Origin: Escherichia coli
Lineage (GTDB): Bacteria; Pseudomonadota; Gammaproteobacteria; Enterobacterales; Enterobacteriaceae
Reading direction: 5' to 3' (one strand)
NCBI RefSeq assembly: GCF_016903815.1
Contig: NZ_CP069973.1
Length of the DNA stretch: 64,000 nt
Each line of letters begins with the position of its first letter. The stretch's first letter is position 1. Below are positions 50,028 to 60,350 of this stretch, one piece after another. A program made the translations under genes and the position numbers. The notes beneath the pieces are model-generated. The model did not search any database. It was not told where the DNA came from and saw only the letters and a list, made by a program, of their open reading frames with translations.

Positions 50028-50043
50028 CTGCAGGGGACACCAT
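50028..50043. repeat. att core repeat (copy of argW 3' end); right junction of prophage 1 and left junction of island 2
   Basis: 16-bp CTGCAGGGGACACCAT identical to argW positions 10820-10835. Confidence 0.8.
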
Positions 50044-50206
50044 CCCGCTGTACACCAACGTCTACCATTGTCTATAAATCCCATGTAAACATATAAAAAT
50101 AAAGAGATTTTATTCTCATGACGTCCATTTCCGTCTATTGAAATCAAGTAAATCTATGGGGCATAATTAGGGGCATTGCTGGTTCGATTGTATATGTGCC
50201 CCCAAC

Positions 50207-51493
50207 ATGTCCAGAAATACCCTCAACAAATTAACAGACCGTCAGTGCAAAGCAGCTAAGCCACGAGACAAAACTTATAAATTGTCTGATGGTGGTGGTC
50301 TTTATCTTGAAGTATCCCAGACCGGGTCGAAGTATTGGCGAATGAAGTATCGCCGCCCATCAGATAAGAAAGAAGACAGACTTGCTTTTGGTGTATATCC
50401 AACCATTAGCTTACAAGACGCCAGAGAAAAACGAGACAACGCCAAAAAGTTGTTAGTCAAGGGGATAGATCCCAAAGCAGAGCAAAGAGCAGCAAAAGCA
50501 GAAGAAAAAGGCGCATTCACTTTTGAGACAATAGGACGTCAATGGGTTGAAAGCCACCAGATGTGGAACGAAGACCACCGAAAACGCGTACTTAGAAGCC
50601 TTGAAATGTATATTTTCCCTCACATTGGCACTTCGGATATTCGCAAACTGGAGGCGATGACAATTTTACCTTTGTTTAAGAAGGTAGATGACGCCGGGAA
50701 ACACGATACAGCCAACCGACTTAAACAACGAGTTAAGGACATCATACATAGCGCCCGTCTGAGCGGCATTAAGACAGAAATCATCACGAATGATCTCGAT
50801 GTCCGGTTAATGCAATATGAAACTAAGCATCATGCCGCACTACATCCCAGAGATTTACCAGACTTTTTCACTCGATTGGGCAGCTTTAAAGGTAATCCTC
50901 TTACCCGCCTTGCCATTGAGCTAACCATGTTGACATTTGTTCGTTCAAGCGAGTTAAGGTTTGCCCGTTGGAAAGAGTTTGACCTTGATCGGGCTGAGTG
51001 GATTATCCCTAAAAAAAGAGAGCCTATCGATGGTGTGAGGTTTTCCACCCGTGGCACAAAAACGGGAAAAGACGAACATATCGTGCTTCTTAGCCGTCAG
51101 GCTGTTTCTATTGTAAAGCAGTTGAGAGAACTAAGCGGAAGCTACGATGTTGTGTTTCCGAATGAAAGAAACACCAAAGGCGTGATGAGTGAAAACACGG
51201 TAAACAAGGCATTACGCTTAATGGGCTATAACACGCAAGAGGACGTAACTGGACATGGATTCCGTGCCACAGCCTGTAGTTCCCTGATGGAGTCCGGTTT
51301 GTGGCAGGAGGACGCAGTAGAGCGCCAGATGAGCCACAAAGAATATAAAGACGTTAAAAGAGCCTACAAGCACAAGGCTGATTACTTAGAAGAGCGCAAA
51401 CTAATGCTTCAATGGTGGGCAGATTATCTGGACGCCAATCGAGAAATACATATAAGCCCTTACGAGTTCGGAAGGAGAACACGCCGTGACTAA
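50207..51493 (+). CDS. P4-family tyrosine integrase (second, distinct integrase)
   Basis: 428 aa; N-terminal MSRNTLNKLTDRQCKAAKPRDKTYKLSDGGGLYLEV... (P4-int arm-binding type) and C-terminal catalytic 'HGFRATA' region; sits next to the att repeat. Confidence 0.9.
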   Translation: MSRNTLNKLTDRQCKAAKPRDKTYKLSDGGGLYLEVSQTGSKYWRMKYRRPSDKKEDRLAFGVYPTISLQDAREKRDNAKKLLVKGIDPKAEQRAAKAEEKGAFTFETIGRQWVESHQMWNEDHRKRVLRSLEMYIFPHIGTSDIRKLEAMTILPLFKKVDDAGKHDTANRLKQRVKDIIHSARLSGIKTEIITNDLDVRLMQYETKHHAALHPRDLPDFFTRLGSFKGNPLTRLAIELTMLTFVRSSELRFARWKEFDLDRAEWIIPKKREPIDGVRFSTRGTKTGKDEHIVLLSRQAVSIVKQLRELSGSYDVVFPNERNTKGVMSENTVNKALRLMGYNTQEDVTGHGFRATACSSLMESGLWQEDAVERQMSHKEYKDVKRAYKHKADYLEERKLMLQWWADYLDANREIHISPYEFGRRTRRD

Positions 51494-52241
51494 GATGACA
51501 GGACTAGATGCGTTTTATAACGAGTCAGAAGATAAAATCTGGTTTGGTAATCTGATCAGCGAACTGGCAAGACTAAACAATGAAAATGAAAGAATGATCG
51601 CTGCCGCTATCTTAAGTAACTACAGATTGAGCAAAGCTAAACCAGATACTTTAGGGGGGCTGGGCTTTTATCAGTTCGATTGGGTATCAGGTTTTACAAC
51701 TAATGACGACTTTGAAAAGCAGTGTGTGGAGTTTTTAGGTCTTCTGGCTATGGGGCATGAATACAGGGAGAGCCCGATACCGGGGGAAGAAGGGACTTTC
51801 AACGTTAGGAAAGGGGAAGACTTTTTATATCACGATGATGAGGATGATTGGTATGGGTCTTACGATTCGTTTTATTTCAAGCGCTCCGAGGTTGTGAACT
51901 TCTTCCCAGAACTGGATATGAATGTTCCAGATAACGAACCAGAAATTGGAGCACTGTCAAAAAAAGTAGAAAGAGAACAAAACTGGAGAGGAAAAGATAC
52001 GGCTTTAAAGATGATCGCCGGAATGGCGATTGCCTTATTTGAATCAAGCAAAGATTTCCATAGTGGAGGAAACCTTAGTATCAATAGGGTTAGTGCCCAA
52101 GTAATAGAAAACAACATAATATTCGGGAACGATGAAGACAGCGATACCCACCCAGATACATTTCGGAGATTGCTAACGAACGCTTTGGATAAGTACGCCC
52201 CCAAATTTAAGAAAAAAGCAACCAAAAAGCGTCCAAAATAA
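51486..52241 (+). CDS. Hypothetical acidic protein, overlapping the integrase stop
   Basis: 251-aa ORF overlapping int2 by 8 bp; no recognised motifs. Confidence 0.45.
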   Translation: MTKMTGLDAFYNESEDKIWFGNLISELARLNNENERMIAAAILSNYRLSKAKPDTLGGLGFYQFDWVSGFTTNDDFEKQCVEFLGLLAMGHEYRESPIPGEEGTFNVRKGEDFLYHDDEDDWYGSYDSFYFKRSEVVNFFPELDMNVPDNEPEIGALSKKVEREQNWRGKDTALKMIAGMAIALFESSKDFHSGGNLSINRVSAQVIENNIIFGNDEDSDTHPDTFRRLLTNALDKYAPKFKKKATKKRPK

Positions 52242-52397
52242 AGGAAGGATGTTCCCAAATTGTGCGTTAGAACTAAAAAATAACGCCCAATTTGGGGTAA
52301 TTCTATTCCCAAAAATTTTTTCTCCAAATTCACAGAAAACTTAAAAAAACAATGATTTACTATCTCACATAGTCAAGCAACGTATTACGAGGTAGAT

Positions 52398-52589
52398 ATG
52401 AAAAAGTCGCTGATTCGGCTATCTGAGGTTTTGAAACGCACTGGCTATAGCAAGGCGTGGGTATATGCTCTGATGAGCCGAGGACAATTCCCCCAATCAG
52501 TCAAGATTGGTGCTCGCGCAATAGCTTTTATTGAAAGCGAGATCGATGACTGGATCGATCAACGTATAGCCGAATCGCGTAGTAACTAA
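52398..52589 (+). CDS. AlpA-family transcriptional regulator / excisionase (island 2)
   Basis: 63 aa; 'RLSEVLKRTGYSKAWVYALMSRGQFPQSVKIGARAIAFIESEIDDWI' resembles the AlpA HTH family. Confidence 0.65.
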   Translation: MKKSLIRLSEVLKRTGYSKAWVYALMSRGQFPQSVKIGARAIAFIESEIDDWIDQRIAESRSN

Positions 52590-52637
52590 AGAACAGAAAC
52601 AAACAGGATACAAACAATACGTTATTAGGTATTAAGA

Positions 52638-52829
52638 ATGCAGTTGAAACCTACCAATCAAAAGCTGAACGTAACCCATGTTGATTTTGAAACCTTCGCG
52701 GCACTGATTAGATCAGAGCCACAAAAGGTGAGCACCAGCACCTGGGTTTATGATGTGAAATCCACCAGCGGTGGAAAAGCTATCGGCATTGCCTCTGGCG
52801 ATGATTACTTAGTAATAGATCTGATTTAA
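52638..52829 (+). CDS. Hypothetical small protein
   Basis: 63-aa ORF; position only. Confidence 0.3.
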   Translation: MQLKPTNQKLNVTHVDFETFAALIRSEPQKVSTSTWVYDVKSTSGGKAIGIASGDDYLVIDLI

Positions 52830-52910
52830 TCGCACAAAAATTGTAGAGTAATTTGGGGAGACAGGAAGTCTCCTCCATATTACATTTTGGTACAACAGTA
52901 AGGGAATAAA

Positions 52911-53105
52911 ATGATTAATTACCTGACCGCTAAAGACGCAGCAGAATATCTTGGCGTCTGTCTGTCACGCTTCTATCAGTTAAAGCGATATATCCGAAGC
53001 TTTCCTCCCTATATAAATCAGACCATCAATGGACGCAAGCGCCGGGTGTGGCTTGCCTCCAGCCTTGATCAATTTGCCGACAGATTTCTGGGGGGACGAA
53101 AATGA
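52911..53105 (+). CDS. Small HTH DNA-binding protein
   Basis: 64 aa; 'LTAKDAAEYLGVCLSRFYQLKR' looks like an HTH; ATGA overlap with the next ORF. Confidence 0.4.
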   Translation: MINYLTAKDAAEYLGVCLSRFYQLKRYIRSFPPYINQTINGRKRRVWLASSLDQFADRFLGGRK

Positions 53106-53488
53106 GCACTCTTACACGCTCTCAGGTCGCCGCGAATATACGCGATATCCTACTAAGTGGCAGGAAGCTTACCCCAAAAGAGTTTGACGACATATTAAGG
53201 AAAGCCGGAAATCACGAACGTAGTCGCGTTTTAACGCTGTTACGCAACGATTGGGGAATTCCTGTTGAGCAGTTTAAAACAGAGGCGTATCACGTCACAG
53301 AACGCAATTTAGAAGCATACCACAGCGATAAAGACGAAACATTGAAGATCTGGAGGACGAACGCCAGATATGTAAAGACATTGCGTAAGGTAAACATAAC
53401 GTTGTCGTTGTTGCGTGGGCTGGTGGGTAAAGTGCCTGAAGACACGCTTAGAACTGTTTACAAGGGTATTGAAACCAAATACCTGTGA
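53102..53488 (+). CDS. Hypothetical protein
   Basis: 128-aa ORF coupled to the upstream HTH gene. Confidence 0.4.
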   Translation: MSTLTRSQVAANIRDILLSGRKLTPKEFDDILRKAGNHERSRVLTLLRNDWGIPVEQFKTEAYHVTERNLEAYHSDKDETLKIWRTNARYVKTLRKVNITLSLLRGLVGKVPEDTLRTVYKGIETKYL

Positions 53489-53556
53489 TTGACAAAGCAG
53501 AAAGCCGACTTTGCGAGAGTCGGCTTTGAAGCAATTGAAATATATGAACTTTACAC

Positions 53557-54609
53557 ATGGAATTATACGATAAAGACGCGAGTCTATCCACAAAATCACA
53601 AGCCGTAATCAATCACATCAATGGTCGCACATTAGCTTATGTGAGATCAGTTACGCACAAACGTAATGAATTAAAGGCGGAGAATAAACGCCAATCATCA
53701 AAGGCTAACCACTGCATACCACCAGCTTGGACAAAGAAGAAATGGCGTACAATGAGGCGAGCTTTGTTTACTCTGGATGTCGAATCAACTAGTGGTATCC
53801 CCTACTCCTTTACCTTCAGACCCGTTAAGGGAACAACGCCAGAGAAATTCAACAAAGCGTTAAAGGCACTTACCAGATGGTTGACTTCGAAAGGCAATCA
53901 GTGGGTTTACGTCATGGAGTGGGCTCAACACCAGTCAGAGCCGCATGTACACGCAATAATTATGGTGAACGAAAGAAGCATTAATGGGCAAGCAGGCAAA
54001 ATTGTCAGCAAATGGGTAACACTGGCAAACAATGCAATCCCATCAAATGTTCCTCCCCAGTGGGATCTAGATTTGAAAGGTCAGCAATATTCAGAGCCTA
54101 CAAGGTGTATAGGTAAACAGATTGATTACATGGCAAAACCCGAAACTAAGTTAAATGACTTTAATAGAGAGGCGAGCAAGAGCCTATATGATTGGTCAGA
54201 TGCCAACGTTTGGGGTTATTCGAATGGCTGGGCGCGGCATGAGATAAAAAAAGAAACACTTTCTATCACTGGCTTTCATGCTGTAAGACGCATACTAAAA
54301 GCCATTCAGGCATCAAGGAAAGACAACTACAAAGTTAAGCGACAGATACAGCGTACATTGAAACGACAAGACATAAATCGCTCACCAATCACCCCGTTCC
54401 AAGCACCGTTAATTAGCAAACACGATTGGGATTTATCAGTGATAGCGGTCACCAAAGAGGCAGAGACAGAGCGCAGGGAGTTACTATCCTCACAGACAAT
54501 AAACTCGAACAAAGTACAAACCCACCCGCTGTTAAGGATGTTAAGAAAAGCACGAGTGAGAGCATCCAGAGCCAGAAGAGAAAGCGGAGGTTATGACCAT
54601 TACTACTAG
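53557..54609 (+). CDS. Putative replication initiation protein (HUH-type Rep)
   Basis: 350 aa; candidate HUH motif 'PHVHAIIMV'; basic C-terminus; followed by GC-rich short repeats (54670-54730) in an AT-rich context. Confidence 0.5.
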   Translation: MELYDKDASLSTKSQAVINHINGRTLAYVRSVTHKRNELKAENKRQSSKANHCIPPAWTKKKWRTMRRALFTLDVESTSGIPYSFTFRPVKGTTPEKFNKALKALTRWLTSKGNQWVYVMEWAQHQSEPHVHAIIMVNERSINGQAGKIVSKWVTLANNAIPSNVPPQWDLDLKGQQYSEPTRCIGKQIDYMAKPETKLNDFNREASKSLYDWSDANVWGYSNGWARHEIKKETLSITGFHAVRRILKAIQASRKDNYKVKRQIQRTLKRQDINRSPITPFQAPLISKHDWDLSVIAVTKEAETERRELLSSQTINSNKVQTHPLLRMLRKARVRASRARRESGGYDHYY

Positions 54610-55407
54610 TAGTGACAGATCGTGACAAGGCAGAGCAAAAAACGACCAATATAAGAGAAATATCCCTGCCCAATCGCCAAAAGCGCGGAGCGCGGAGCGC
54701 GGCAAGCGCCGCGAGAGGCGCAAGAAGGCGAACCTATCCATTGAAACGGTCAGAAGAGCGCATCGCGCTCGATGACCGAAGTCCCCACTAACACCGTTAA
54801 CGAAAGATCAAAGTCTTAGAAAAAAATGACGTTTCTTTGAAGGGCTTCCATCCGTAAAAATCAAATTTTGAGATAAAGTACTTATAGAAATTAATCACTC
54901 TATAAGAGTGAGTTGACGTGAGTTTGAAGTGAGCAACATATTAAAAATATATATAATAATCAAACATATAATAACAACTACTGAGCAAAAATCACCAGAA
55001 AACAACGTCAACGTAACGTCACTCTGTAAGCACTTTTTCAGTCACTTTTTGGGTTGAATACACGTATAAATCCCCAACCATGAAATTTGAGCGCGTAAGC
55101 ACGACTCTGAAAGGCTTTTTATCTTTTAACCATTTAATATACCTGAGGTATTGAAGAAGATTCTGAGACATATACTAGAACTTTACCGTGCACGACTAAC
55201 AACATAAACGTTATATTTATATATAAATCAATGAGATAAATACATCCCCATCCAAAAAACAAGCATAACGCAAAATTGCGTTATCAACTTAAAAGGTACG
55301 ATTGAATCTGACAGTCTGCTCTGAGCGAAATGTGGGCACGTTCACCATAAGTCTCCAGATTGAAACGAAATGATAGTGTTAAATGTTCGATAGTTACTTT
55401 TCTAAGC

Positions 55408-56400
55408 TCAACGTTCGTAATAGTAATCCGACACCTCAGTAAAATCTATTTCCTCCCTAGAAAGTAATGATTCCATCTCATCTAGTTTATCGATTTGAGG
55501 CAAAACACTTGTTGGTGAAATCACAACATTAAAGTCCTCATTATATCGGTGACCTACCCTTGTGAGCTCTTTACCTAATTGCAACAATATATAATCACGT
55601 AAAATAAGTTGATTCCGTCTAAATCGAATAAGACGATAGTAATGGAAGAAATCAGAACATTTTGATGAATCATAATTTCTACCATTCCACCCGGTTTTCC
55701 TCGTAGCTCGGAATAATGCTTGCTCTTGCGTATTTTTCCAAATGCTAAAATCAAAGTGACTTTTCGGGTTAGGATTTTCGTATGTTGCTTGAGGATAAAA
55801 ATTAGTAACACCAAATTGATGCTTGTCAATGATCTTTAAAGTCCGATTTTGTTCAGACAACATCCGCCTTAAGGACCTAGGAATTTCGAAACGCATTAGT
55901 TTGTTTTTATCCAAGATTCTTAATTCTCTTGGAAGCATCTCATGATCCCGTTCTAAATATCTTTCACACCGTTTCGGCACATACTGAAAATACACTGAAA
56001 AAAAACAAAATATATTATCAGAAACGAGAGGAGTAATATGTATTTTTTCTTGCTCAGGAACGTTTTGAACAAAATAGTATGCCGTTCCTTGCCAAATCAA
56101 CGATTGCGCTACTGCCTCCACCAATTCACGTATTGTTTCATCTACCGAGTATTTCCTATATCTAGCTTGTAAATTTCCAAACATTTTACGTATGAGTTCT
56201 TCGTCGTTAGTTTCGACTTGAAACAAATTGGTATCACCGTGATTTACAAAATTAAAAACTCTAGCAAAATCCTCATAAAACATCCTTTGATAGAAACCTG
56301 GTCGTTCATTCTTAGACTTGGTCAATAGTCTATCAACAAAACTTAATTGCTCAGGATCGACGCTATAACCGTAAAGGGGTATATTCTTGATAATTTTCAT
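55408..56400 (-). CDS. Uncharacterised soluble protein, second gene of a candidate two-gene accessory (defence?) operon
   Basis: 330-aa ORF, ATG at 56400 with AGGA 7 nt upstream; ATGA overlap with the upstream gene stop; AT-rich; no family motif recognised by eye. Confidence 0.6.
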   Translation of the reverse strand: MKIIKNIPLYGYSVDPEQLSFVDRLLTKSKNERPGFYQRMFYEDFARVFNFVNHGDTNLFQVETNDEELIRKMFGNLQARYRKYSVDETIRELVEAVAQSLIWQGTAYYFVQNVPEQEKIHITPLVSDNIFCFFSVYFQYVPKRCERYLERDHEMLPRELRILDKNKLMRFEIPRSLRRMLSEQNRTLKIIDKHQFGVTNFYPQATYENPNPKSHFDFSIWKNTQEQALFRATRKTGWNGRNYDSSKCSDFFHYYRLIRFRRNQLILRDYILLQLGKELTRVGHRYNEDFNVVISPTSVLPQIDKLDEMESLLSREEIDFTEVSDYYYER

Positions 56401-58862
56401 TCAAAATCCTTATCGTATTCCACGCCAAAACGACGAGCCAACTCACTAACATGGTAATCGATCTTGAAGTCAATTTGCTCGAGTTGCGGGAAAATTTCGA
56501 GAGCACAAAAGAGATGCGATGCATCTGAATGGGAGTTTAAGAACTCTCTGACAACTTTGTTCGTATGAGATTTCCCTCGATTCATTCCCATTTGATCGCT
56601 AAAGCCATCATGTCTTGCGCGGCGCTCAAATTCCATTTTCCAGTTAAGACGAATCATATCTCTCGGTGATGCGCACAAGCTGAAATTGCGCGGATTTGAA
56701 AGAATCATCATTCTCTTCAAATACTGCTGTTTGTTGGGAACAGACTCGAGCCAAGACTTAAACCTATCAAGTACTGTTTTAGATAGTTTTGCATTATCGA
56801 AATAAGCACTGTAAAGGATAGCAAAACCTAGAACTGACATCAGATCGTTGATCGCGGATGAAAGGAGATGCAGTCGAAACTCGTTGTTTATATCGAGTTT
56901 CGGATCTACAAATTTGGTATCTGATGCCAGCAATGAGAGAACCATGAACATAGGGAATACCTTGCTCAGTTTATTTTCATCATTCTGTTCAAGCGCATGT
57001 ATACATTCCTCAGCCAACTCAAAATATATCTGTCCAAAATGATCCGGTAGTTCATCATCTTGCTCTTGTTCAATGATATGTCCCACAATTTCCACCCTAC
57101 CAAGAATAGCTATAGCTTCATCCTGTGTAACGACAAACTGTTTGAGCATTTCAGCAATATTAATTTCTGGTAATGCGTATAGCTTTTCAGAGTAGTGCTC
57201 GTACTTTCTGTATCTCTCCAAGAGCAGAGAAAGTTCATTAAACCAATGGGGAAACTTCAAATGATTATGTAGGCTAGCGAGAACGACTTGCGTTGCGGCT
57301 TCCGGCATCTTCATGTTTATCAGTGAGTTAACGAAATCTGGAACCATGTTTACGTGAAAATCGCATACTTCTGGCAGAATTTTAGAATATTGTTGTAATA
57401 ACTTCTGAACCGCCAACTGCTGGACGTACTTTGGTTTGGATAATCTCTGTCCTTCAATCTCTTTTTCGAATTCGATACGTTCTACGATAAAGGCCAACTC
57501 AACCTGCAGAAAAGCAGGCAAAGTGTGTAGAGAGGTCTCTGTCCAGATATCATCTTTAAAGAACTGCTCCAATTCTTTCTCAAAAGTAATCATGCGGCGT
57601 AACATTTCAAGGCAAAGATTGCTGCCTAATGCAGCCCATGCATCCGCAATTCCAACTTTTATCACCTTTTCCTCAAAATAATTAACGACATCAGACGGTG
57701 TAAAGGCTTTTTCAATGATCGTCTTCATTTTCCGAAGTTCACGTATACCAATATCGAACTGAAACTGTTGTGCATAAGTTAATATACGAGATGAGAATAG
57801 ACTGATGAGATCCAACCCGAGCTTGAAATCACCGGCTTTGAATGCAAGTTCAATATGGCCTACCAACCTATTGATAATTTCATTCTCTAACCAAAGATAA
57901 TTTGGTTCTTCTTCAACCGTTAATTGGCTCCTTGTTTTTAAAGCAATGGATGTTACACTGTCGCCAGCTAAGAACCATTGCTTATGTTTTATTCGTCTAG
58001 GGAACCAGTAACTTTGATAATCAATTCTGTGTTTCTGATTAAGGTAATGAAGAAGTAATGCCGAATAAACATTACTGAGAGCAGGTAAATTATCTCCGAG
58101 TCCTACTTTTTCACATATCAGGCGATCATCAATGTAGTTTAACTGCTCAAAGGCCAAATGTGCGGCTTTAGAGTGATGATTAGCTAAAGATACTGAATTC
58201 TTGGGATTAGACGCACCTTCGATGTGTCGTGCAATTCGTGGGAGTATTTCACTTCGGGCTAACTGATTTAGGTCAAAAAAATTGAATAATCTTTGACCTA
58301 ATGGGAACAGAGCTAAGGAACTAACAAGTGTCAGCAATGTTCCCATTGCATAAACGAAAAGACCGGGTTCAACCCCGAACAAGTGGAGAGCAGTTGCACT
58401 AAGACAAAACACCGCAGAAAGCACTAAAGTCCGCGAATACACATTACCTACCTGCTCGGTAGTAAGCATTTGTATAATATCTCGCCGAAGTCTGGTATAT
58501 CCTGTACTTAGAATGATACCTATTGTAGCAAAGTATATTGAAAATATAGCGGTAAGTATCTGTGCGTACAACCTAAGTTGATCAATATTAAATTTTTTTT
58601 CATCATAGCTAAGAGGATGAAGCAAAATCGTATTATTCCGAATATAATCTTCAACAAAACCCAGTGCAAATAACGTTAATATGACCCATAACAAATTTTT
58701 TAAACCTACCAACGCAAAAGACATAAAAACATGAGCGTTAGACTTAGCTTTAAAAACAGACGTACGATGTATGTATGACGCACGTTCTAAAATAAATCTA
58801 ACCCTCACAAGATCTGTTCTTAATTTCCAGAACCACTTTTGAGAAATAAGCCAAACCTTCAT
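56397..58862 (-). CDS. Uncharacterised large membrane-anchored protein (four N-terminal TM helices plus ~600-aa cytoplasmic domain), first gene of the candidate operon
   Basis: ORF 56397-58874 (TTG) with first ATG at 58862 (about 821 aa); hydrophobic segments VFMSFALVGLKNLLWVILTLFALGF, LYAQILTAIFSIYFATIGIILST, RTLVLSAVFCLSATALHLF, LFVYAMGTLLTLVSSLALFPL; no Walker A, HNH or other obvious motif found by eye. Confidence 0.6.
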   Translation of the reverse strand: MKVWLISQKWFWKLRTDLVRVRFILERASYIHRTSVFKAKSNAHVFMSFALVGLKNLLWVILTLFALGFVEDYIRNNTILLHPLSYDEKKFNIDQLRLYAQILTAIFSIYFATIGIILSTGYTRLRRDIIQMLTTEQVGNVYSRTLVLSAVFCLSATALHLFGVEPGLFVYAMGTLLTLVSSLALFPLGQRLFNFFDLNQLARSEILPRIARHIEGASNPKNSVSLANHHSKAAHLAFEQLNYIDDRLICEKVGLGDNLPALSNVYSALLLHYLNQKHRIDYQSYWFPRRIKHKQWFLAGDSVTSIALKTRSQLTVEEEPNYLWLENEIINRLVGHIELAFKAGDFKLGLDLISLFSSRILTYAQQFQFDIGIRELRKMKTIIEKAFTPSDVVNYFEEKVIKVGIADAWAALGSNLCLEMLRRMITFEKELEQFFKDDIWTETSLHTLPAFLQVELAFIVERIEFEKEIEGQRLSKPKYVQQLAVQKLLQQYSKILPEVCDFHVNMVPDFVNSLINMKMPEAATQVVLASLHNHLKFPHWFNELSLLLERYRKYEHYSEKLYALPEINIAEMLKQFVVTQDEAIAILGRVEIVGHIIEQEQDDELPDHFGQIYFELAEECIHALEQNDENKLSKVFPMFMVLSLLASDTKFVDPKLDINNEFRLHLLSSAINDLMSVLGFAILYSAYFDNAKLSKTVLDRFKSWLESVPNKQQYLKRMMILSNPRNFSLCASPRDMIRLNWKMEFERRARHDGFSDQMGMNRGKSHTNKVVREFLNSHSDASHLFCALEIFPQLEQIDFKIDYHVSELARRFGVEYDKDFE

Positions 58863-59087
58863 TATATCAATCAAGTGATACCTGCCTTCTCATCTCTACA
58901 TGCAACATAAAAATGCTTACTATGGTGGCAAACAAAATCAAGAATCATATGTTTGAACACTTTTTACGCACGAATTATCCGGTGTAAGATACTTATAGTC
59001 AAATGGCAGGGCTAATCTCATCTGTATTGAGCTATTAACAGCCATATGTAAGACTAAGAAACGCGCCCAGCAAAGGCGCGTTCTGCA

Positions 59088-59264
59088 TCAGGTAAGTTTG
59101 CTGGGGTCTACGGTTTCCATCCAATCTGGAGCAATTCCCAAACGTTCCGCTATCTCTTCGTTGGTCATGTCTTCAGTTGAGAAATTAGCCAGAGAATCGT
59201 TAACTTCAGGATAGTCAGGGGAGAGTAACAGGTATTCCCGCAACGCTTTCAGATCTTTTTCCAT
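59088..59264 (-). CDS. Small hypothetical protein with downstream terminator
   Basis: 58-aa ORF (MEKDLKALREYLLLSPDYPEVNDSLANFSTEDMTNEEIAERLGIAPDWMETVDPSKLT), not in the ORF track; followed on its strand by hairpin aacgcgcc/ggcgcgtt (59056-59086). Confidence 0.3.
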   Translation of the reverse strand: MEKDLKALREYLLLSPDYPEVNDSLANFSTEDMTNEEIAERLGIAPDWMETVDPSKLT

Positions 59265-59431
59265 TTTAACGCTCCTTGTTTATTGACAGTCGAACGATGG
59301 TGAAGATTCTTGCCATCTCAAGTACAGGCAAGAAAATCCACCAGAACACCAAATTATCTCATAAGGTTAAATCGGTGTCGGGCTATTTCTTTCGGCTAGG
59401 TGAGTGTACCGCCTTAACCACCGGCAATTAT

Positions 59432-59560
59432 CATTGTCTCAATTGGGTATACCGTAATGACAAGGTGATACAAAGTCTCAATAGGGTTGTATAGGAACAT
59501 TTTGACTACACAAAATGCATTATGTATCATTTGCACTTATATTCACAACCCTATTGAGAC
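59432..59560. promoter_or_regulatory. Putative recombination (res-like) site with perfect 16-bp inverted repeat upstream of the serine recombinase
   Basis: gtctcaatagggttgt (59475-59490) and acaaccctattgagac (59545-59560) are perfect reverse complements separated by 54 bp; a related half-site 'tgtctcaattggg' lies at ~59437-59449. Confidence 0.5.
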
Positions 59561-59566
59561 AATGCA

Positions 59567-60193
59567 ATGAACGTTAGAATTTACTGCCGAGCATCAACTG
59601 AGGGGCAACACGCTGATCGAGCACTTACCAGCCTACGTGAATTTTCAAAATCAAAAGGCTGGCAGATTGCAGGAGAGTATATAGAAAATGCTAGCGGGGC
59701 GAAGCTTGAGCGCGTAGAGCTTATGCGGCTATTGTCTGAAGCCCAGTCCGGCGATCTGTTGCTAGTGGAAGCTATAGATCGTCTGAGTCGCCTAGAACAT
59801 AGCGCATGGGTCGAACTGAAAGATACGCTCAACCGAAAAGGGTTAATCATCGTATCAATGGATTTACCAACGAGCTGGCAGATGGTCGAGATGGCAGGCA
59901 ATGACCTAACCAGCGGCATCCTGAGAGCCGTAAATGCCATGTTGATTGATATCCTTGCCACAATGGCACGGCAGGATTACGAAACACGTCGTAAACGCCA
60001 ACAGCAAGGCATTGAGCGAGCTAAAAGCGAAGGAATATACATTGGCAGGGAGAAAAATCAGGAAGCCCGAGAGATCGTTAGAGAGATGTTGGAGCAAGGA
60101 GTAAAACCTGAACTCATCATGAAGGCAGCAGGAATCAGCCGAGCGACTTACTACCGTATAAAAAGTGAGCTGTCAGTCGTAAAATCAGAATAA
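59567..60193 (+). CDS. Serine recombinase (resolvase/invertase family)
   Basis: 208 aa; N-terminal catalytic region 'VRIYCRASTEGQ' with the nucleophilic Ser; C-terminal HTH 'ISRATYYRIK'. Confidence 0.85.
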   Translation: MNVRIYCRASTEGQHADRALTSLREFSKSKGWQIAGEYIENASGAKLERVELMRLLSEAQSGDLLLVEAIDRLSRLEHSAWVELKDTLNRKGLIIVSMDLPTSWQMVEMAGNDLTSGILRAVNAMLIDILATMARQDYETRRKRQQQGIERAKSEGIYIGREKNQEAREIVREMLEQGVKPELIMKAAGISRATYYRIKSELSVVKSE

Positions 60194-60327
60194 CCTTTGA
60201 AAGGTCGTCAGGCTTGTTTCATCTGCTAAAAGCCAGCATTTCTGACCATAATACCTGGGGGCACCTACTGGGGCACCCACCAAAATCGAAAGACAAATAA
60301 GTTATAATTCAATCTGTTAGTTTACTT

Positions 60328-60350
60328 TTCGATTCCTGCAGGGGACACCA
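60328..60350. repeat. att core repeat (third copy of argW 3' end); distal junction of island 2
   Basis: 23-bp TTCGATTCCTGCAGGGGACACCA identical to argW positions 10812-10834. Confidence 0.8.

Follow-up and report, generated by a model that had tools for sequence, protein, structure and literature searches.

Our analysis concerns a conspicuous set of G+C-rich heptamer repeats in a 64,000-nucleotide stretch of Escherichia coli contig NZ_CP069973.1 (hereafter, the window), where they lie in the gene-free DNA downstream of rep, a gene for a Rep-class HUH endonuclease carried by a 10.3-kb island integrated at the tRNA gene argW. An initial annotation of this DNA had suggested that the repeats might be an origin or nick site for Rep or else a structured terminator. 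We find that the heptamers form the slipped 5' half of a G+C-rich stem-loop, composed of a conserved hairpin (HP1) plus an outer GCGC tier, and that their third copy is a recent gain within one lineage. Our preferred, still tentative reading is that HP1 and a neighboring hairpin (HP2) form an accessory module in the origin region of a rolling-circle replicon, with a role as single-strand hairpins; the heptamers would be a neutral microsatellite, and selection would act upon the ability to fold, rather than upon the repeat or its exact sequence. The three tandem GCGCGGA-like heptamers described initially are indeed present, as three perfect copies of AGCGCGG beginning 73 nt past the rep stop codon (54607-54609). 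They lie within the 41-mer aagcgcggagcgcggagcgcggcaagcgccgcgagaggcgc (54681-54721), which at 80.5% G+C is the highest in the window (mean 45.9%). No other perfect tandem of three copies occurs in the 64 kb at any period from 4 to 11, a perfect 3x7 tandem arose in none of 300 first-order Markov simulations, and the 14-mer AGCGCGGAGCGCGG has no second occurrence in the window even when 2 mismatches are allowed; the AGCGCGG triplet is not a chance feature. The surrounding intergenic region had been called AT-rich, which is accurate for 54800-55400 (G+C 0.29-0.38), but the repeats themselves sit in its G+C-rich first fifth (G+C 0.54 over 54600-54799). The partial palindrome reported beside the repeats is likewise real and corresponds to HP1 (CGCGGC-AAGC-GCCGCG, 54698-54713), which has a 6-bp stem and a 4-nt loop, and whose 5' arm is overlapped by copies 2-3 of the heptamer.

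In an alignment of seven islands, the window alone has three heptamers, while the remaining islands of its type (type A) have two. The closest comparisons come from the window's own lineage: a second strain (L022) differs from the window over 200 nt by a single 7-nt unit and nothing else, and a contig from a viral collection (L054) carries two heptamer copies and is otherwise identical. We then compared the three-copy form with 5426 complete E. coli genomes and binned the matches by identity. Among the 539 carriers, 142 match at ≥99% identity and belong to one lineage, 4 match at 90-95% identity, the band expected for the window's lineage minus one unit, and 393 match at 80-90% identity and represent other lineages. 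Every sequence inspected from the 90-95% and 80-90% bands has two copies. Since the inspected sequences outside of the ≥99% band all have two copies, the third heptamer is a recent slippage gain, from two copies to three, in one lineage. A whole-unit difference in copy number between very close relatives, with nothing else changed, is also what characterizes a variable-number tandem repeat or microsatellite. In the type-B islands, whose Rep is 50% identical to that of the window, the aligned place reads AGCGCAA AGGCGGC or AGCGCATAAGTCGGC and contains no repeat, and related plasmids read GCTCAGGGCGGT at the aligned positions, again with no tandem repeat. Absence of the repeats from homologous islands, which the initial annotation regarded as evidence against its proposal, is thus found for the heptamers in both type-B islands and plasmids, but not for the palindrome.

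HP1 has a very different distribution from the heptamers, as it occupies the same columns throughout when 32 distinct sequences from islands and plasmids are aligned. Its two arms pair in 98.4% of the cells of this alignment, with compensatory changes at three of the six base pairs (GC/CG, GC/AU, and CG/UA), whereas control alignments in which the 3' partner was slid by 1-3 columns paired in ≤52% of cells and exhibited almost no covariation. The stem reads CGCGGC/GCCGCG in type A, GGCGGC/GCCGCC in type B1, GGCGGT/ACCGCC in most plasmids, and GGCGAT/ATCGCC in one plasmid, so that base pairs are swapped even between islands with Reps 50% identical. The loop is variable and consists of 3-4 nt (AAGC, AAAC, AAC, AGC, TTC, AAA, or TCC). 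Plasmids have two direct copies of the HP1 unit ~88 nt apart, and on one of them (L031) the two copies differ in their stems (GGCGGC/GCCGCC versus GGCGAT/ATCGCC) with complementarity retained. Conversely, the plasmids L015 and L056 encode Reps that are only 24% identical, yet their HP1 is identical (GGCGGTTTCACCGCC), which argues that HP1 is not a determinant of Rep specificity. HP1 therefore appears to be independent of Rep divergence, which suggests that it is a generic structure, recognized by host factors or in RNA metabolism. It should be noted that the covariation shows a conserved palindrome and does not specify the molecular form in which the palindrome would act.

The outer GCGC/GCGC tier around HP1 pairs in 86.7% of cells and includes a single compensatory change, from GC to UA. 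In its two-copy form, the 48-nt segment is predicted to adopt a single dominant three-tier stem-loop (ensemble frequency 0.98, z -3.6, RNA fold -24.9 kcal/mol), while the three-copy form is divided among competing registers (ensemble frequency 0.15). According to these folds, the heptamer periodicity is the spacing of the stem tiers on the 5' side. HP2 also has a plasmid counterpart (GGCGC-TCC-GCGCC) in which the fifth pair has changed from A-T to G-C, and its loop likewise varies (ATC, ATT, TCC, CTC, or TTC). An apparent insertion at HP2, with a recurrent GGTCA breakpoint that we considered as a nick site, proved to be a misplacement by MAFFT; in a loop-centered comparison, island and plasmid HP2 are homologous. 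On the plasmids, two or three such hairpins are spread over 150 nt. When compared with shuffled sequences, the fold of 54660-54800 has z -3.1 on the + strand and z -1.4 on the minus strand.

Both hairpins reside within a much larger unit of conservation. The blastn alignments to sister E. coli islands end at query position 565, equivalent to window position 55124, and the cargo differs beyond. Because these alignments all stop at 55124, we assign the ~515 bp from 54610 to 55124 to the island backbone and the DNA beyond to the cargo. A homologous block is located directly downstream of the rep homologues on Klebsiella plasmids. As the block is kept after rep while the cargo changes, and recurs on autonomous circular plasmids, it very probably holds the cis-acting origin functions of the replicon. 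Hence, the proposed origin for the HUH Rep survives in a modified form: the repeats do lie inside a block that always follows rep and recurs on plasmids, but the heptamers do not constitute a conserved site for Rep. A comparison at the nucleotide level between the window and the type-B island L012 illustrates this. The strongly conserved core (54746-54925) is 92% identical, versus 52-65% for rep, 56% for the spacer after the rep stop codon, 62% for the heptamer/HP1 segment, 60% for the AT-rich stretch, and 58% for the rest of the block. Thus, the heptamer/HP1 segment diverges at the background rate, unlike the core.

Within the core, an A-rich invariant box is kept as AAAGTCYTAGAAAAAA(A) in all 32 of the island and plasmid sequences, even though their Reps are just 24-29% identical, and a GAWGGGCWTCC box together with the CTTATA..CTATAAG inverted repeat also persists in plasmids despite only 24-29% identity among their Reps and between these and the island Rep. 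Both arms of the inverted repeat are conserved in the islands, and in plasmids they are present about 65 nt apart. The invariant box (54810-54826) is predicted to be unpaired in the plasmid fold, where it falls between the HP2 and HP3 positions, and also in the window centroid, but partly paired in the minimum free energy fold of the window. To the right of the box, TGACGT/ACGTCA occurs in 4 copies within 231 nt versus 0.13 expected (Poisson P about 1e-5), in inverted orientation around an AT-rich stretch whose 66 nt from 54935 to 55000 have a G+C of 0.20. The plasmid L015 has three TGACGT within 5230-5345. All three right-hand units have CAT in place of CGT in some sister islands, and we considered this change in the three ACGTCA repeats as a sign of Rep-specific iterons; this was rejected, as L004 and L013 pair a type-A Rep with the CAT form. 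From these patterns, 54805-55021 is a better candidate than the heptamers for the part of the origin in which Rep would bind, melt, and nick the DNA. The idea that the palindrome is itself the nick site is not sustained, as the 3-4 nt, variable loop of HP1 is too small by comparison with known Rep-class origins, in which the conserved nick sequence is typically either displayed in a loop of ≥6 nt or left single-stranded beside the stem, and the invariant box is the stronger candidate.

The preferred reading would arrange these elements as follows. Int and AlpA would first mediate excision of the island, after which Rep would nick the + strand in the conserved core, at either the invariant box or the CTTATAG inverted repeat, with the TGACGT repeats around the AT-rich stretch acting as binding and melting sites. 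As HP1 and HP2 are just upstream of the core, on the rep-coding strand, they would be displaced last, could fold in the displaced single strand, and might then provide an accessory or lagging-strand signal, similar to a single-strand origin, for host enzymes. The third heptamer would be neutral. We infer the replication function, the nick position, the strand, and the role as a single-strand origin from sequence comparisons. Among known systems, the closest are the single-strand origins, i.e. the ssoA/ssoU-type of rolling-circle replication plasmids and hairpins B/C in the intergenic region of the Ff phages. The island hairpins are similar to these in being stable, imperfect, non-coding, located beside a replication gene, with the presumed leading-strand origin just downstream of them. 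They are also conserved as structure rather than as sequence, independently of Rep divergence, as is evident from the covariation of HP1 and HP2 and from the + strand fold (z -3.1). They differ in having no sequence similarity to known single-strand origins, with no RSB/CS-6-type consensus recognized by eye, and in their G+C-only stems of 5-6 bp. To our knowledge, single-strand origins are poorly catalogued in the Enterobacteriaceae, the host family here. For the placement of an origin immediately after the initiator gene, there is a tested precedent in the PIME islands (int-alpA-repA), in which oriV is immediately downstream of repA (10.64898/2026.01.12.698999). The PIME oriV (10.64898/2026.01.12.698999) and the SaPI/PICI ori resemble the present arrangement in having an int-alpA-rep island, an origin directly 3' of rep, repeats by an AT-rich stretch, and defense cargo beyond. 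They differ in their theta initiators of the RepA or primase-helicase type with iterons, whereas this island encodes an HUH nickase, and the PIME hallmarks trbJ, trbL, and an IncP-like oriT are absent from the island.

A number of observations weigh against this reading. The compensatory changes in HP1 amount to about 3-4 independent events among related sequences, and a symmetric double-stranded protein site would covary in the same manner as a hairpin. The evidence for the folding strand is contradictory, since a G-T wobble is found on the + strand in L007 and on the minus strand in L054. No known single-strand-origin consensus was recognized by eye. Sequences of the island type were found integrated only, never as circular contigs, and even the two-copy repeat is restricted to type-A islands. 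Lastly, in the Klebsiella/Citrobacter islands L008 and L014, rep and the G+C-rich stretch are still present although all of the conserved sequence from HP2 onward is gone; the G+C-rich part can thus survive without the core, perhaps merely by adjoining rep.

Of the alternatives, the one that fares best, which we consider doubtful, is that HP1 and HP2 act at the RNA level in the 3' untranslated region of the rep operon transcript, as stem-loops that would protect the mRNA 3' end from exonucleases or insulate rep from convergent cargo transcription, in the manner of the REP-type extragenic hairpins of E. coli. The hairpins do lie 90-160 nt past the rep stop on the coding strand, they are stable and G+C-rich (-24.9 kcal/mol and z -3.6 for the two-copy RNA), their stems covary while their loops vary freely, and the L007 wobble is a G-U pair on the + strand. 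The convergent arrangement of rep and cargo noted initially is correct as well, with rep on the + strand and the cargo on the minus strand. A structured terminator finds no support, as there is no T-run on either strand (AGAGGCGCAAG downstream of the hairpins on the + strand, CTCCGCGCTTTTGG on the minus strand) and a scan called no terminator-like site at 54680-54780. A candidate terminator at the end of the block (55050-55128) folds no better than shuffled sequences, and we make no claim for it. The RNA explanation as a whole is similarly disfavored by the lack of a U-tract after either hairpin and of any terminator-like call on either strand, by the absence of an Rfam match at the gathering threshold or E≤1, by the L054 change, which pairs on the minus strand only, and by the two or three plasmid hairpins over 150 nt, which exceed what a 3' end would need. 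The segment is also unlike REP elements and their RAYT partners in that it is not dispersed: it has a single location in each of the 539 genomes and no second occurrence in the window.

It is unlikely that the G+C-rich stretch is simply without present function, i.e. a decaying relic of an Arg/Lys-rich coding tail or small open reading frame (ORF) that is palindromic by way of its self-complementary GCGC units and bears a neutral microsatellite. Its background-rate divergence, its frequent indels of 7, 1, and 2 nt, and its persistence without the core in L008 and L014 would all suit such a relic. So would the DNA at 54607-54791, where one frame beyond rep is Lys/Arg-rich in every lineage (KRRKR.., KRRRRIRRKR..; for example, KRRKRISRQRRQKRKK). 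Two-copy relatives have an ATG-initiated ORF of 40 codons (MPAKPPKARSAANAARGARRR...) whose start reads ATC in the window and is thereby lost, and a comparison of L012 with L008 by eye has a codon-like look, with 7 of 12 changes at third positions. Nevertheless, among the three frames translated for nine lineages, none is open with a start codon across the lineages. We accordingly rejected a present-day coding segment, whether a small basic ORF or a Rep extension, for its lack of a common start and its frame-breaking indels of 7, 1, and 2 nt among close relatives; in addition, the rep frame is closed by three stop codons in a row (TAG TAG TGA), for which type-B islands keep the equivalent TAG TAG TAA. 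Compensatory changes together with 98% pairing would also be hard to obtain by decay, and the hairpin is found at the same place in plasmids with Reps 24-29% identical to that of the island.

The proposal closest to the initial annotation, namely that the heptamers are Rep iterons and the palindrome is the nick hairpin of a double-strand origin, is in our estimation quite unlikely. It was a reasonable idea, because HUH enzymes cut single-stranded DNA in or beside a hairpin and several of them also bind short tandem repeats nearby. Its position immediately 3' of rep is suitable, and the G+C-rich segment does differ between islands with type-A and type-B Reps. The observations described above run counter to it: the copy number is polymorphic in identical backgrounds, type-B islands and plasmids have no tandem repeat, HP1 is the same in plasmids with Reps 24% identical, the segment is at background divergence while the core at 54746-54925 is 92% conserved, nicking in the loop would need more than 3-4 nt, and the four TGACGT around the AT-rich stretch are better iteron candidates. 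The pMV158-type double-strand origin has a nic hairpin with the nick in its loop and 'bind' direct repeats recognized by the RepB origin-binding domain. By comparison, the island heptamers vary in number and are missing from relatives such as the type-B islands, the loop is only 3-4 nt, and the conserved core is about 100-200 nt away. Parvovirus/AAV origins have tandem G+C-rich (GAGC)n Rep-binding repeats beside a hairpin and a terminal resolution site. The similarity with these is an analogy only, as the island unit and context differ and its repeat is polymorphic and restricted in lineage.

We regard as improbable the further possibility that HP1 and HP2 act in double-stranded form, as palindromic operators to which a dimeric DNA-binding protein encoded by the island would bind (the helix-turn-helix (HTH) protein, the 128-aa protein, or the serine recombinase), with a role in copy control or multimer resolution. 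They are near-perfect palindromes of 15-16 bp, they occur on plasmids as two direct HP1 units about 88 nt apart, a symmetric site covaries like a hairpin, and the element encodes several small DNA-binding proteins in addition to a resolvase. However, the L031 copies, with different stems and complementarity kept, suggest a readout of structure over sequence; L056-type plasmids keep HP1 and HP2, although none of their proteins that were tested is recognizably homologous to the 128-aa protein; and the sites are G+C-only and very short relative to known res subsites. Finally, it is highly improbable that HP1 and HP2 are recognition hairpins of an unstudied HUH Rep lineage that, in the manner of IS608 TnpA or the RAYTs, would recognize small hairpins rich in G+C and cleave at a distance, with the slippage-prone heptamers acting through register changes in the extended stem as a heritable switch tuning origin firing, which, if true, would tune the excision-replication and transfer of a defense-carrying island.

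The enzyme itself has all three motifs of the Rep-class HUH endonucleases in order, i.e. motif I (uuTu) as FTF at residues 84-86, motif II (HUH) as HVH at 130-132, and motif III (YxxK) as YMAK at 191-194, together with an HUH fold, and residues H130, H132, Y191, and K194 are invariant in a 20-member Rep alignment. Its comparison with known proteins gave values of 8.8 for SIRV1 ORF119, 8.2 for Parvovirus B19 NS1, 7.0 for the pMV158 RepB origin-binding domain, 7.0 for Helraiser, 6.9 for AAV5 Rep, 6.7 for IS608 TnpA, and 6.4 for a RAYT. In a PDB sequence search, the single Rep protein had no match (E≤1) and the family profile had HUH matches below threshold only. The family is tiny, with 29 matches at E≤1e-3 among 1.84 billion representative proteins, and in 100,044 species genomes it was found only in E. 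albertii and one Citrobacter species. The 128-aa protein encoded directly upstream of rep matches no family, but its 126-aa counterpart at the equivalent place on the plasmid L015 shares 46% identity with it, versus 29% for Rep. It may be an origin-binding or copy-control partner of rep.

The plasmid relatives were reached via distant Rep homologues and then via the DNA pattern and blastn with plasmid sequence. Two distant members of the Rep family, P0013 and P0014, are 25% identical to the window Rep in the family alignment (29% locally for P0013); their contigs are circular by end overlap, at 5.6 and 4.6 kb, and each molecule encodes a resolvase, an HTH protein, a 126/127-aa protein, and Rep. 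The shared non-coding DNA pattern led to 31 metagenome contigs, many of plasmid type and several circular, with overlaps of 127, 77, or 55 nt, and blastn identified complete Klebsiella pneumoniae plasmids of 5.3-6.3 kb that carry the block. The circular contigs in which the block comes directly after a rep homologue have terminal overlaps of 127, 77, 55, and 30 nt. The two PLSDB plasmid records examined lack a replicon type and are classed as non-mobilizable. Overall, the plasmid family (L015, L016, L023, L024, L037, L047, L053, L056, and L057) consists of circles of 4.6-6.3 kb from Klebsiella and the gut metagenome, which share the Rep homologue, the non-coding block, and the resolvase, with the 126-aa protein in some members. 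In L056-type plasmids, which keep HP1 and HP2, no homologue of the 128-aa protein was detected among the proteins tested. The L015 and island resolvases are 29% identical. By gene content, the island looks like such a plasmid that gained a P4-type integrase and AlpA. Two further arrangements of the Rep family were also observed. L019/L020 (1669 bp with a 30-nt terminal overlap) is a 1.64-kb circle that encodes nothing beyond a 324-aa distant homologue of Rep and an ORF of 84 aa, i.e. a minimal rolling-circle replicon; the 1.67-kb L019 sequence has no recognizable motif in common with the island block. L021 (114-6534) is an element with an integrase, a distant Rep, and AlpA, whose accessory genes are DUF2971 and DUF4145, which suggests that fusion of the Rep family with P4-type integrases happened more than once.

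The features of the island are collected in Table 1. The window contains tRNA-Arg(CCU), or argW, at 10760-10834, followed by a ~39-kb prophage ending with torI and then by the island, such that argW is occupied in tandem and the prophage and island are each bounded by a copy of the tRNA 3' end (50028-50043 and 60328-60350). In L007, the island is directly beside tRNA-Arg (argW), with no prophage. A 251-aa protein is encoded between int and alpA, two small proteins, one with an HTH, follow alpA, and a 58-aa gene separates the cargo from the serine recombinase. Approximately 800 bp after rep are gene-free, followed by two cargo genes convergent with rep.

Table 1. Features of the argW island and of the DNA following rep (window coordinates).
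Feature	Position	Strand	Basis or remark
argW island, whole, 10.3 kb	50028..60350	.	argW 3'-end direct repeats; domain hits; RefSeq annotation of identical locus
attL / attR, CTGCAGGGGACACCA	50028-50042 / 60336-60350		direct repeats of argW 3' end
int	50207-51493		P4-type tyrosine integrase
alpA	52398-52589		
128-aa protein	53102-53488	+	directly upstream of rep
rep	53557-54609	+	350 aa, Rep-class HUH endonuclease
Conserved non-coding block (~515 bp)	54610..55124	.	putative cis-acting replication region, travels with rep
AGCGCGG x3, perfect tandem	54682..54702	+	Tandem Repeats Finder: period 7, 3.0 copies, 100% match
Extended three-tier stem-loop	54683..54721	+	outer GCGC (54683-86 or 54690-93) pairs with GCGC 54718-21 around HP1; heptamers are 5' half
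HP1, CGCGGC-AAGC-GCCGCG hairpin/palindrome	54698..54713	+	centroid folds; covariation
Strongly conserved core	54746..54925	.	HP2, invariant box, GAAGGGCTTCC, CTTATAG/CTATAAG inverted repeat
HP2, GGTCA..GAGCGC-ATC-GCGCTC..TGACC hairpin	54748..54777 (inner stem 54756-54770)	+	folds; plasmid homologue
Invariant box, AAAGTCTTAGAAAAAAA	54810..54826	+	candidate Rep nick or recognition box
TGACGT (54827, 54914) and ACGTCA (55005, 55016)	54827..55021	.	inverted orientation around AT-rich stretch; iteron-plus-unwinding-like
Inverted repeat CTTATAG-N12-CTATAAG	54881..54906	+	alternative candidate nick hairpin
Cargo gene pair, 330 aa + 825 aa	55408-58874	minus	4-nt overlap
Serine recombinase	59567-60193		

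The rep-proximal part of the island is present in 539-542 of the 5426 complete E. coli genomes (about 10%), in every case as a single chromosomal copy. The backbone is shared by the sister islands, but their cargo differs and includes SIR2, GAPS6a/b, an HNH nuclease, AIPR, and DpnII-like genes, as well as a 470-aa protein in O157:H7. The 330-aa and 825-aa cargo proteins of the window have no match in Pfam, PHROGs, PADLOC, or NCBIfam. Given that the same slot holds SIR2, GAPS6, HNH, AIPR, and DpnII-like genes in the sister islands, the 330/825-aa pair is a candidate uncharacterized anti-phage system. Some related copies are incomplete. In L008 (9044-9330) and L014 (7041-7330), the type-B rep is intact and the backbone stops at ..GAAATGGTCA, equivalent to approximately window position 54752; these versions may be replication-deficient. 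The O157:H7 strain TW14359 (L002, 6403-7640) has a decayed copy without int or alpA in which rep is cut to 648 bp, and the O157:H7 non-coding block is kept at 88% identity with a 2-nt deletion beside HP2. Searches with the island DNA found no similar phage or plasmid records, and we found no description of the island or the plasmid family in the searchable literature. PICMI, PIME, the Pseudomonas tmRNA islands transduced by jumbo phages, and EcCIMP1 were each considered as its identity and are different elements, the last being located at proA-yagU and having a primase. We know of no helper element for the island.

Taken by itself, the heptamer repeat is a minor polymorphism, and HP1 would be an origin-associated hairpin with a microsatellite of a familiar kind. 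It also serves as a caution against taking an eye-catching repeat for a Rep site. For further work, the more useful results are the limits of the cis-acting block, the distinction between its fast-evolving hairpin part and its 92%-conserved core, and the existence of autonomous plasmid relatives in Klebsiella. At the level of the whole element, the argW island appears to be a rolling-circle plasmid replicon backbone fused to a P4-type integrase and AlpA, which offers a single slot to differing anti-phage genes.

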